DNA of 64,000 nucleotides. Origin: Anaerolineae bacterium. Its GTDB lineage: Bacteria > Chloroflexota > Anaerolineae > UBA4142. The notes beneath the pieces are model-generated. The model made no database searches. It was not told where the DNA came from and worked only from the letters and a program-made list of their open reading frames with translations. Made by a program: the position numbers and the translations under genes. Where the stretch lies: the NCBI GenBank assembly GCA_034435055.1, contig DAOTXS010000097.1, positions 66,864 to 130,863 on the forward strand. The letters run 5' to 3'. Positions 18,102 through 29,293 of the stretch are shown in pieces (the first letter of the stretch is position 1; each line of letters starts with the position of its first letter).

Positions 18102-18223
18102 CACTCACCTTACGCAATACAGATTGATTTTACCGCAGAGCACGCGGAGAACGCCGAGATTTTCCAATGTTTTTCTCTGCGAACTTTGCGTTCTCAGCGG
18201 TGAAATTGCGTAACATCAGTTAT
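18102..18223 (+). mobile_element. ~122-bp palindromic MITE-like repeat, copy 1 (TTACGCAA...TTGCGTAA termini)
   Basis: cactcaccTTACGCAAtac...ttttctctgcgaactttgcgttctcagcggtgaaaTTGCGTAAcatcagtta. The reverse complement of 29172-29293 matches it, including an identical 45-nt core. The element is internally self-complementary. Confidence 0.8.
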
Positions 18224-19084
18224 TCATACAAACAATGGTTCCAATTGCGCCGCGTTTTCGATCATCACTTTTTGTTCGGCGGGCGTCATTGGCGTGAAAT
18301 GTTCGCACGCATCAAGAAATAGTGGTAGCACGTTGACATCGCCGACGGTACACAGCCCGGTGATGTCTTGCGATAACGCAAAGTTTACCGCGCGTTGAAT
18401 GTTCGTGGCGTCGGTGAATGGCTCGTACCACGTTGTGTGTGTTCTGTCGCGTTCGCCCCAAGGTCCTTTGGTAACTGCTTTGATCGCCATTACGCCCACA
18501 TCGCGCGCGCGGCATTCGCGCAGTAATGTTTCCGCGTCGCGGCGGTAATCCGGCTGACTAAAAAGTTTCGCATTGATCGGAAACAGTACCGTGTCGAAAT
18601 CGAACCGACGTAACGCTTCCAGAAAGACACTTGGCGCGAACAAGCCGTGCCCGGTGATGCCGATGAATTTCGTCAATCCTTCGGCGCGCGCATGAATTAC
18701 CGCTTCCAACGCGCCGCCCGGCGCGGTTGCTTTGTCCAACTCATCGATCGTGTTGACGGCGTGGAGTTGATACAGATCGAAATTATCGACCTGCATTTTT
18801 CCCAGCGAGCGACGGAATTCCGCCGCCGCGCCGTCTTTCGTTCGTTCGGTTGTTTTGCAACCGAGAAAAAACCGTTGGCGTTCGCGCGCGAGCCATGGTG
18901 CGAGGCGTAGCTCTGCCATGCCATTGCTGTACGACGGCGCAATGTCGATATGATTCACGCCTGCGGCAATCGCGCGCGCGATTGCGGTATCATCGATGGC
19001 TTGATCGAACTTGCCCAGCGCCGCGCCGCCCAAAATTGCCACCGTGCTGAAATGCCCAGTTCGTCCAAAGCGTCGTTTTTCCAT
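18224..19084 (-). CDS. Aldo/keto reductase family oxidoreductase
   Basis: 286 aa. It begins 'RRFGRTGHFSTVAILGGAALG' and contains 'DNFDLYQLHAV', a typical AKR layout. Confidence 0.85.
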   Translation of the reverse strand: MEKRRFGRTGHFSTVAILGGAALGKFDQAIDDTAIARAIAAGVNHIDIAPSYSNGMAELRLAPWLARERQRFFLGCKTTERTKDGAAAEFRRSLGKMQVDNFDLYQLHAVNTIDELDKATAPGGALEAVIHARAEGLTKFIGITGHGLFAPSVFLEALRRFDFDTVLFPINAKLFSQPDYRRDAETLLRECRARDVGVMAIKAVTKGPWGERDRTHTTWYEPFTDATNIQRAVNFALSQDITGLCTVGDVNVLPLFLDACEHFTPMTPAEQKVMIENAAQLEPLFV

Positions 19085-19112
19085 ATTGACCTCAAGATGA
19101 TACGTTTGTCTC

Positions 19113-19141
19113 TTGAAATGACCCGTTTATCACTTTATTCT
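19113..19141 (+). promoter_or_regulatory. Candidate promoter of the hydrogenase operon (TTGAAA-17-TATTCT)
   Basis: Hexamers at 19113-19118 and 19136-19141 in the AT-rich divergent intergenic region. Confidence 0.35.
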
Positions 19142-19231
19142 ATATTAATCTAATGTTAAAATTTATGCAAGCCCAATGACATTTTCCGAGTGCTGATGAT
19201 GGCGCAAGGAACAAGCAAGGGGTGATGAAAT

Positions 19232-19274
19232 GCCTCTGGCGTTTATTCGACGCGCCCGAGGCGTTTGTTTTTTA
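19232..19274 (+). promoter_or_regulatory. Terminator-like hairpin plus T-tract inside the hydrogenase 5' leader (possible attenuator)
   Basis: GCCTCTGGCG tttattcgacg CGCCCGAGGC (10-bp stem, 1 mismatch) is followed by gtttgtttttt. There is no upstream plus-strand gene to terminate. It lies ~90 nt before the small-subunit ATG. Confidence 0.45.
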
Positions 19275-19360
19275 TCGCACCAGCCAAGGAGGTGAATCTA
19301 GCAAAGTATAACGAATCAACTTTACGCGGCAATGGTTCCTCTGATGAAAGGAGTCGGTCT

Positions 19361-26946: not shown

Positions 26947-26952
26947 TGTGAG

Positions 26953-28041
26953 ATGAAATACATTGACGAGTACCGCAACGAAGCGGACACGCAAAAATTT
27001 GTGCAGGCAATTCAACGTTTGGTAACGCGCCCGTGGACGATTATGGAGATTTGTGGCGGGCAAACACACACGCTCATCAAATTTGGAATTGATCGAATGT
27101 TGCCCGAACAAATTACTCTGGTTCACGGTCCGGGTTGCCCCGTTTGCGTTACGCCGCTCGAACTGATTGACAAGGCGATTGCCATTGCGCGTCAACCGAA
27201 TGTGATCTTTACCTCGTTTGGCGATATGTTGCGCGTCCCGGGATCGCAAGATGATTTGCTCTCCATCAAAGCACGCGGCGGCGATGTGCGGATGGTGTAC
27301 TCGCCGCTCGATGCGGTGAAACTGGCACAGAAAAATCCGGGCAAGCAAGTGGTGTTCTTTGCGGTTGGCTTTGAGACCACCGCCCCCGGGAATGCAATGG
27401 CGGTCTGGCAAGCCAAACAACTCGGCTTGCAAAATTTTTCGATTCTCACGTCGCACGTGCTGGTTCCGCCGGCGATGGAAGCGATCTTGAGTTCACCCCA
27501 TAATCGTGTGCAAGGATTTCTGGCGGCAGGGCATGTCTGCACGGTGATGGGCTATTGGGAGTACGAACCCATCGCGGCAAAATATCGCGTGCCGATTGTG
27601 GTGACCGGCTTTGAGCCACTCGATTTATTGCAAGGGATTTATATGACGCTCAAGCAACTCGAAGAAGGACGCGCGCACGTGGAGAATCAGTACACACGCT
27701 CGGTCAAACGCGAAGGAAACCTGCCGGCGCAGAATCTGATCAAACAAGTCTTCGAGGTGACGGATCGCAAGTGGCGCGGCATCGGTGAGATTCCCCAGAG
27801 TGGTTATCGTTTGCGCGCCGAGTTTGCCGCCTTTGATGCCGAACAACGGTTCGCTGTTACCTCGGTCATTGCGCATGAATCGCCCTTGTGCATCGCCGGC
27901 GAAATTTTGCAAGGACTCGCAAAGCCGCATCATTGTTCCGCGTTTGGAACGCAATGCACGCCGGAGCATCCACTCGGCGCGCCGATGGTTTCGCCGGAGG
28001 GTGCGTGCGCGGCGTACTTTCAGTTTGCGAGGACGCTATGA
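26953..28041 (+). CDS. hypD: Hydrogenase maturation Fe-S protein HypD
   Basis: It begins 'MKYIDEYRN' and has the motifs 'CGGQTH' and '[10 protein letters not shown]'. The track ORF start (26893) lies inside the repeat and is rejected. Confidence 0.95.
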
Positions 28042-29096
28042 GCGCAGTCGAATTTACCGGCGTGCAATGTCCGATTCCCATCAACGAATATCCGCACATC
28101 ACGCTGGCGCACGGCGGCGGCGGACGCTTGATGCAAATGCTCATCGAAAAAATGTTTGTACCGTCGTTTGCCAACCCCGCGCTGGAATCCTTGCACGATG
28201 GCGCGATCATCGAAACGCATGGGGCGCGCCTGGCATTCACCACCGACTCGTATGTGATTCATCCGATTTTTTTCCCGGGCGGTGACATTGGTTCGCTGGC
28301 GGTGCACGGCACGGTGAATGATTTGGCGATGTGTGGCGCGCAACCGCTCGCGCTTTCCTCGGCGCTGATTTTGGAAGAGGGCTTGCCGATGCACGATTTG
28401 TGGCGCATTGTGCAATCGATGCAGAACGCGGCGCAAAAGGTTGGCGTCCCGATTGTGACCGGCGATACCAAAGTGGTGGATCGCGGCAAGGGCGATGGCG
28501 TGTTCATCAATACCGCCGGCATCGGCATGATTCCGGCGCACATTCGCGTTGCGCCACAGCGGGCGCAACCCGGCGACCTCGTTTTGCTTAGCGGTGCGAT
28601 TGCAGTACACGGCATCGCGATTATGTCGGTGCGTGAGGGATTGGACTTTGAAACGCAACTGCAATCCGATTCCGCGCCATTGCACGACATCGTCGCGCGG
28701 GTGCTCGAGGTGGCGGGCGAACACGTTCACGTTTTGCGTGATCCCACCCGCGGCGGAGTGGCAAGCACGTTGAACGAGATCGCCGCATCGGCGAAGGTTG
28801 GGATCCGCTTGCAAGAAACGCAGATTCCAATTGACGATGCGGTGCGCGGCGCGTGCGAAATCCTGGGATTCGATCCGCTCTACGTCGCGAACGAAGGCAA
28901 ATTTCTCGCCATCGTCGCGCGCGAGGTGGCGGAGCAAGTTCTGGCGACGATGCAGGCGCATCCGTTAGGCAAACAATCCGCGATAATCGGTGAGGTGGTT
29001 GCGGATCATCCTGGCAAAGTGTATTTGAAAAGTCGGATTGGTGGAATGCGTGTGGTGGATATGCTCAGTGGCGAGCAACTACCGAGGATTTGCTGA
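28038..29096 (+). CDS. hypE: Hydrogenase maturation carbamoyl dehydratase HypE
   Basis: It has '[14 protein letters not shown]' and an AIR-synthase-like fold pattern, and the C-terminus ends in 'PRIC'. It forms an ATGA overlap with hypD. Confidence 0.95.
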
Positions 29097-29114
29097 TCGC
29101 TAAATTTGCGATAT

Positions 29115-29149
29115 GTCATTTCGAGCGAAGCGAGCAATCTCGTAATGAC
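29115..29149. mobile_element. Short copy of the GTCATT(T/G)CGAG...CGTAATGAC palindromic element
   Basis: gtcatttcgagcgaagcgagcaatctcgtaatgac shares its termini and the 'gcgaagcga(a)gcaatctc' core with 43339-43427. Confidence 0.7.
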
Positions 29150-29171
29150 ATCACCTGCATAGCATCAATTA

Positions 29172-29293
29172 CTAACTGACGTTACGCAATTTCACCGCTG
29201 AGAACGCAAAGTTCGCAGAGAAAAATCCTGAAAAATCTCAGCGGTCTCCGTGGGCTTTGCAGTAAAACAATTCGGTTTGCGTAAGGTGAGTTA
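29172..29293 (-). mobile_element. ~122-bp palindromic MITE-like repeat, copy 2 (inverted relative to copy 1)
   Basis: The reverse complement reads ctcaccTTACGCAAaccgaattgttttactgcaaagcccacggagaccgctgagatttttcaggatttttctctgcgaactttgcgttctcagcggtgaaaTTGCGTAAcgtcagtta. This matches 18102-18223. Confidence 0.8.

Follow-up and report, generated by a model that had tools for sequence, protein, structure and literature searches.

Why should a hydrogenase gene cluster lie between two inverted copies of one short repeat? The question is raised by a stretch of 64,000 nucleotides from an uncultured Anaerolineae bacterium (contig DAOTXS010000097.1; hereafter, the window), in which about 11 kb carrying a gene for an aldo/keto reductase (AKR), the structural genes of a [NiFe]-hydrogenase and the hyp maturation genes is bracketed by a pair of repeats, copy 1 on the left and copy 2 on the right. 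A first-pass annotation of the DNA had called the repeats similar to transposable elements of the miniature inverted-repeat type (MITEs), and had proposed that they would allow the block to invert by recombination, or that they mark a hydrogenase module acquired or mobilised as a cassette. Our analysis showed that the repeats are indeed MITEs. Very probably, they are two separate insertions of a non-autonomous DNA transposon of about 116 bp, and the bracketing of the block is a by-product of target availability, the element having neither delivered the block nor flipped it.

The two copies are reverse complements of each other and could be aligned from end to end (18102-18223 with 29172-29293), with 86.7% identity across 120 nt by BLAST and a mean column identity of 92% by MAFFT, a measure in which each column of two sequences scores at least 50%. 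The identical core of 45 nt occurs twice in the window when up to 3 mismatches are permitted, where no occurrence is expected, and a third copy within the 64 kb was detected neither by an nhmmer profile made from the two copies nor by blastn-short. Each of the two folds into a long hairpin, the z score being -5.2 at copy 1 and -2.5 at copy 2, and Rfam showed no match to them or elsewhere in the window. The similarity is unevenly distributed: the right halves differ at 1 of about 56 positions and the left halves at 16.

The copies end in imperfect terminal inverted repeats (TIRs) of 14 bp (CTSAYSTTACGCAA), one end reading CTCACCTTACGCAA and the other CTGA(T/C)GTTACGCAA. The TIR pattern CTSANSTTACGCA matches the window at the four element ends only (4 matches against 0.75 expected). 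The element so delimited is 115-116 bp long and contains no open reading frame (ORF) of its own. Each copy is flanked by its own perfect 7-bp target-site duplication (TSD), TTATTCA at copy 1 and TTACTAA at copy 2. The inverted pair of about 122 bp, the 45-nt core and the internal self-complementarity described in the first-pass annotation were thus all confirmed by the alignment, the core count and the folds, and only the ends of the copies had to be refined (Table 1).

Comparison with related genomes showed what these loci look like without the element. Homologues of the PIG-L protein, encoded to the left of the block, placed the organism in the Chloroflexota, class Anaerolineae, and led us to three informative contigs, L004 (JGI 3300037307) and L002 (Logan SRR24236065) among them; L008 (GCA_037444225.1) is another relative that was compared. 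Across 1047 bp ending at position 18103, L004 is 98.4% identical to the window, and its sequence then picks up at 18220, with TTATTCA present once; the site of copy 1 is thus seen there in its exact empty state. L002, which is 81-88% identical to the window, also has no copy 1, and it lacks the entire segment 29106-29299, that is, copy 2 together with a neighbouring 35-bp palindrome, while the terminator that follows is retained.

Further copies were sought with the strict 21-mer CTCNGCGGTRAAATTGCGTAA in collections of genome and metagenome contigs and with an 18-mer in viral contigs. The metagenome contigs yielded two real copies, on the unrelated contigs L005 and L007, and one chance match; the single match among the genome contigs, in Novosphingobium, was also due to chance, and no copy was detected in the viral contigs. 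Known members of the family are therefore the two in the 64 kb and the two on other metagenome contigs. The copy on L005 lies in a divergent promoter region and has a perfect TSD (TTATTCA/TTATTCA), and that on L007 has a TSD matching at 6 of 7 positions (TGACTCA/TTACTCA), which overlaps the stop codon of an FtsX-type permease gene. When the four copies are compared, the right end (GCGGTRAAATTGCGTAAC..CAG) is best conserved and the left arm is decaying. Because TIRs, a 7-bp TSD at each copy, an empty site and copies in unrelated contexts are found together, we conclude that the element is a bona fide MITE, forming a new family in uncultured Anaerolineae; the label given to it in the first-pass annotation was correct. 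We found no description of a MITE of this kind in Chloroflexi in the literature.

The target sequences explain why these two positions are occupied. The insertions share the near-palindromic consensus TKA-N-TMA, which is made up of stop-codon triplets facing both ways. With the four TSD copies counted in, the window contains 35 occurrences of TKANTMA, corresponding to 33 sites before insertion, near the chance expectation, and 6 of the 33 are non-coding or at gene ends on a rough gene map. There are five convergent gene junctions in the window, and the motif is present only at the two occupied by the MITE. Since the target resembles two stop codons placed back to back, insertions are steered to gene ends, and since the two occupied junctions are consecutive convergent ones, what lies between them is a single pair of divergent transcription units, namely the AKR gene and the hydrogenase-hyp operon. 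Target availability thus accounts for the bracketing, and no role of the MITE in moving the block is needed.

The following course of events would account for the arrangement. Most likely, the MITE is moved by a DDE transposase whose gene lies elsewhere in the genome; both this action in trans and a part played by selection in the choice of sites are what we infer from the pattern of copies. The transposase would make a 7-bp staggered cut at the AT-rich, near-palindromic TKA-N-TMA, and repair of the cut would duplicate the target to give the TSD. As such a target is rare outside genes in this genome of 54% GC, tolerated insertions would end up at gene ends. Each of the two sites taken is a spacer that separates a stop codon from a terminator, at the successive convergent junctions PIG-L/AKR and hypE/orphan (the latter an ORF at the right boundary), and the AKR, hydrogenase and hyp genes fall between these junctions, with target availability and tolerated insertion together producing the bracketing.

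Several points weigh against this account. The consensus TKA-N-TMA is derived from four insertions only. The exact empty site for copy 2 comes from one relative at about 82% identity, and no relative more than 91% identical at the right flank was present among the 120 matches listed for a chimeric protein query. The copy count covers only the window and the contig collections, and a pair of copies 11 kb apart is a high local density when set against two other matches across the genome and metagenome collections, as found with the strict 21-mer. In the two window copies, the near identity of the right halves could be due to gene conversion, beyond the conservation of a transposase-binding end. 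An autonomous partner with the same ends was not found when the end patterns were searched in genome, metagenome and viral contigs.

Could the two copies instead be the ends of an 11-kb compound element that brought the AKR, hydrogenase and hyp genes here? Composite transposons (Tn10 and Tn5 are examples) and composites bounded by MITEs likewise consist of two inverted transposable units around a functional gene block; in Acinetobacter, MITEs have reportedly mobilised integrons in this way. The inverted copies do bracket the cluster closely, the locus varies among relatives (L002 is without the structural genes and L008 without the AKR gene), and the synonymous divergence (dS) of the hydrogenase structural genes from L008, about 0.3, is below that of PIG-L, 1.29. 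However, a composite unit would share one TSD across its outer flanks, whereas here a separate TSD surrounds each copy and the outer flanks differ (TTATTCA and TTACTAA), which excludes composite transposition. The relatives also hold the genes of the block without the repeats. Both L004, at the empty site of copy 1, and L002 keep the AKR gene directly beside PIG-L. The gene order is PIG-L, AKR (minus strand), hypA-F-C-D-E in L002, and PIG-L, small subunit, large subunit, cytochrome b, HycI, hypA, CBS, cytochrome c, hypA-F, DUF5615, hypC-D-E in L008; neither has a MITE, and in both the orientation relative to PIG-L is that of the window. The hyp genes therefore adjoin PIG-L in both relatives without any MITE, and synteny independent of the repeats, of the hyp genes in L002 and of the hydrogenase and hyp genes in L008, is the very observation that the first-pass annotation had named as speaking against its own proposal. 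In addition, the boundaries of the gene-content differences (19096/23888, about 19191 and 29388) lie away from the MITEs: the structural genes are absent from L002 between 19096 and 23888 (L002 1709-1811), the AKR gene is absent from L008 over about 18066-19191, and there are no repeats at these gene-content junctions of L002 and L008. On the right side, homology stops at 29387 in L002 and at 30009 in L012, from the same sample as L002, so that the orphan alone sits at the synteny breakpoint. The composition of the block, which had been suggested as a check, looks native, since its GC content and codon usage resemble those of the flanks and only the orphan stands out. With TSDs on each copy, relatives free of the repeats, gene-content boundaries elsewhere and native codon usage, we consider the cassette to be an extremely improbable origin of this arrangement; among close relatives, the region next to PIG-L has a modular make-up that does not depend on the MITEs, in which the AKR gene, the structural operon and the neighbour downstream each come and go.

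The same TSDs bear on whether the block inverts. Homologous recombination between the copies might flip the 11 kb in part of the population and alter its transcriptional context, and the inverted orientation with a 45-nt identical core does provide a minimal recombination substrate; the near-identical right halves could even mean that sequence has been exchanged between the copies. But 45 nt of identity is generally a poor substrate for RecA and gives only inefficient recombination, and a crossover swaps the inner flanks and would mismatch both TSD pairs, which are intact. An odd number of inversions since insertion is thereby excluded, and the present arrangement is either the state at insertion or one separated from that state by an even number of flips. 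All relatives and the retrieved Logan contigs of 100% identity agree with the order in the window. Contigs of the samples SRR10095340 and SRR10095342 are 100% identical to the window. Among exact-protein searches with PIG-L (taken with too long a start), the large subunit, AKR, hypE and HypC, only HypC gave a match, to two short contigs that cover 26253-28575 and do not reach the MITEs; a single orientation was seen throughout (window, L002, L008 and contigs L013-L015). No recombinase gene was found among the neighbours scanned (19 genes, 13956-34638), and because both ends of the block lie outside its promoters and inside the terminators, a flip would change little. The inversion suggested in the first-pass annotation thus failed to find support, and we regard such a switch as highly improbable. 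Also very doubtful is a scenario in which the copies may recombine or convert, the 11-kb segment would occasionally invert or be exchanged, and the PIG-L-proximal locus would be a hot spot moving hydrogenase modules between Anaerolineae lineages; it is prompted by the near-identical right halves (1 difference against 16 in the left) and by the dS from L008 of about 0.3 for the structural genes against 1.3 for PIG-L. The hairpins might also be kept for a function in the 3' untranslated regions, stabilising or terminating the AKR and hypE transcripts as REP/BIME, ERIC and Correia elements can. Both copies are long hairpins located between a stop codon and a terminator, they have the same orientation in the AKR and hypE mRNAs, and the copy on L007 likewise follows a gene end in matching orientation. 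Nevertheless, a shared orientation of two copies has a 50% chance expectation, close relatives with the same genes and terminators lack the copies, the copy on L005 is located between divergent promoters, decay is seen in the left arm and no Rfam family matches, so that we think this function very unlikely.

In its general features, the inserted MITE resembles those of other bacteria, such as Correia/NEMIS of Neisseria, Nezha of cyanobacteria, RUP of Streptococcus and the MITEs derived from insertion sequences (ISs), which are likewise about 100-150 bp long and devoid of ORFs. They share with it the TIRs, a hairpin-forming body and a TSD of fixed length, as well as the intergenic location next to terminators and the presence/absence polymorphism between close relatives. 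It differs from the named families in that its sequence is unrelated to any that could be tested here, its host is an uncultured Anaerolineae and four copies are known; its 7-bp TSD at TKA-N-TMA is also unlike the TA duplicated by Correia elements. REP/BIME elements, which are mobilised by RAYT, are palindromic and extragenic and lie close to the 3' ends of genes, as does the element, but REPs measure 20-40 bp, have GTAG or CGTC heads and produce no TSD. This identity was therefore ruled out by the 116-bp length, the CT... ends, the TIRs and the 7-bp TSD.

The transposase that moves the MITE may be placed from the ends of the element. No transposase gene, which for the IS4 family would be expected to encode a DDE enzyme with a YREK motif, is linked to any of the four copies. 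The ISPepr1 subgroup of the IS4 family has ends of the form YT-AA-YTT---A beginning with 5'-CT; its members prefer AT-rich targets and make direct repeats of 7-8 bp (De Palmenaer et al. 2008, PMC2266710). Both ends of the MITE begin likewise with 5'-CT and match 6 of the 8 conserved positions of this consensus, A5 and T9 being unmatched, and its TSDs (TTATTCA, TTACTAA, TTATTCA and T(G/T)ACTCA) are 7 bp long and AT-rich, which fits the 7-8-bp repeats and the AT-rich targets tabulated for the subgroup (PMC2266710). The element differs from members of the subgroup in having no transposase gene and in the two unmatched positions. From these properties of the ends and TSDs, the parent transposase is probably of the IS4 family and of an ISPepr1-like type, which is a reasonable if unproven assignment.

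The sequence divergence of the locus forms a mosaic. Between the window and L008, dS is 1.29 for PIG-L, 0.95-1.09 for hypA, hypF and hypC, 0.46 for hypD and 0.29-0.39 for the small subunit, large subunit and cytochrome b genes (window 19361-22897, L008 8871-12486); between the window and L002, it is 0.50 for PIG-L and 0.65-1.11 for the hyp genes. This pattern suggests that hydrogenase modules have been exchanged by recombination among related Anaerolineae, recently in the case of the structural genes. Constraint by codon bias on highly expressed genes is an alternative. Neither explanation involves boundaries at the MITEs.

Two other differences between the window and its relatives were seen. 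The alaS gene and those following it lie directly upstream of the PIG-L-hydrogenase region in L008 (2-4943) and about 38 kb downstream of PIG-L in the window (56775-64000), which points to a rearrangement between the two genomes. To the right of copy 1, the identity of L004 falls from 98.4% to 82.6%, with 18 mismatches in about 90 bp, of which 16 are within 47 bp encoding the AKR C-terminus (18244-18290). In a three-way alignment inspected by eye, L004 and L002 are closer to each other in this patch than to the window, and the mismatches could represent a small conversion tract or an assembly chimera. The drop was also considered as a boundary of block replacement at copy 1, and this was rejected for too little support, as the mismatches are mostly packed in 47 bp and the contig ends at about 18316.

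The gene content of the region was determined with Pfam over the 19 genes of the domain scan. The block consists of the AKR gene on the minus strand, the [NiFe] small and large subunits, cytochrome b, the HycI protease, cytochrome c and hypA, hypF, hypC, hypD and hypE; it is flanked on the left by the PIG-L deacetylase gene, and on the right by the orphan ORF without a Pfam hit and then by an ABC transporter operon. The content of AKR, structural and hyp genes given in the first-pass annotation is correct, but its description of the maturation set as complete was slightly overstated, since Pfam found no hypB in the cluster. Other small features described in that annotation were found where it had put them or nearly so: strong terminators lie just outside both copies, with the right hairpin at a slightly adjusted position, and the right boundary carries a small copy of a second repeat and an orphan gene richer in AT (Table 1). 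The orphan has the worst codon fit of the window, and no homologue of it was present among the 120 matches listed (all of at least 195 bits) when the orphan, joined to the C-termini of the ATPase and of HypE as a chimeric query, was searched against 5.8 billion proteins. The second repeat, a palindrome of the form GTCATTTCGAGCGAAGCGAG(C/A)AATC..., stands beside copy 2 and has a partial copy at 43338-43366; it was also seen in another metagenome-assembled genome of the Chloroflexi (L009, about 1500-1540).

Table 1. Positions of the MITE copies, their target-site duplications and the surrounding features in the window (dG, folding free energy).
Feature	Position	Strand	Remarks
Intrinsic-terminator hairpin, PIG-L/AKR convergent junction	18071-18098	+	dG -17.5, z -9.1; conserved in L004; copy 1 sits in its T-tail
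Copy 1, left TSD	18097-18103		TTATTCA; L004 holds a single TTATTCA at the empty site
MITE copy 1	18104-18219	+	116 bp; starts with CTCACCTTACGCAA, ends with TTGCGTAACATCAG; between PIG-L terminator and AKR stop codon
Copy 1, right TSD	18220-18226		TTATTCA; includes AKR stop codon (TCA = TGA on minus strand)
AKR gene	18224-19084	-	found in L002, missing in L008
[NiFe]-hydrogenase small and large subunits, cytochrome b, HycI protease, cytochrome c	19361-23843	+	missing in L002, found in L008
hypA, hypF, hypC, hypD, hypE	23889-29096	+	beside PIG-L in L002 and L008 without a MITE
35-bp palindromic element, family distinct from the MITE	29115-29149		GTCATTTCGAGCGAAGCGAG...; absent from L002
Copy 2, left TSD	29169-29175		TTACTAA
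MITE copy 2	29176-29290	-	115 bp; inverted relative to copy 1; between hypE stop codon and shared terminator
Copy 2, right TSD	29291-29297		TTACTAA
Bidirectional terminator hairpin, hypE/orphan convergent junction	29308-29336		dG -19.2, z -7.2; conserved in L002
Low-GC orphan ORF	29421-30029	-	202 aa, GC 0.48; synteny breakpoint just outside copy 2

Within the hydrogenase operon, a cytochrome c gene is embedded (window 23415-24230), and at the corresponding position L008 has an extra hypA and a CBS-domain gene (13084-14368). One close homologue of the large subunit carries the annotation 'hydrogenase, group 1f'. Strong hairpin repeats with a periodicity of 6-7 nt were observed inside hypF (24790-24850, 25660-25745 and 26224-26303), with others at the hypC/hypD junction (26881-26939) and at 3732-3762. 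Those in hypF are of the type GACGAAA.../...TTCGTCC, with dG of -39 and -47 kcal/mol, and also of the type AAGTTCA/TGAACCT. They are in frame and encode peptides such as TKDERRTTNDSSLVVRPSS, resembling in-frame palindromic elements such as the RPEs of Rickettsia. At one of these sites the insert is lacking in L002 and replaced by a different palindrome in L008; at a second site the window, L002 and L008 all carry palindromes of differing sequence. The copy at 26881-26939 gives the hypD ORF a spurious N-terminal extension.

The account of a mobile or invertible hydrogenase cassette at this locus is thus removed as unsupported, and the pair of MITEs is seen as the result of ordinary transposon activity. 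For claims of this kind in general, a cheap test is available, namely to check the TSD of every copy and to look for empty sites in near-identical metagenome contigs. The stop-codon-like 7-bp target explains why copies pile up at gene ends, and the four copies document an apparently active MITE family in uncultured Anaerolineae, members of a poorly studied phylum.

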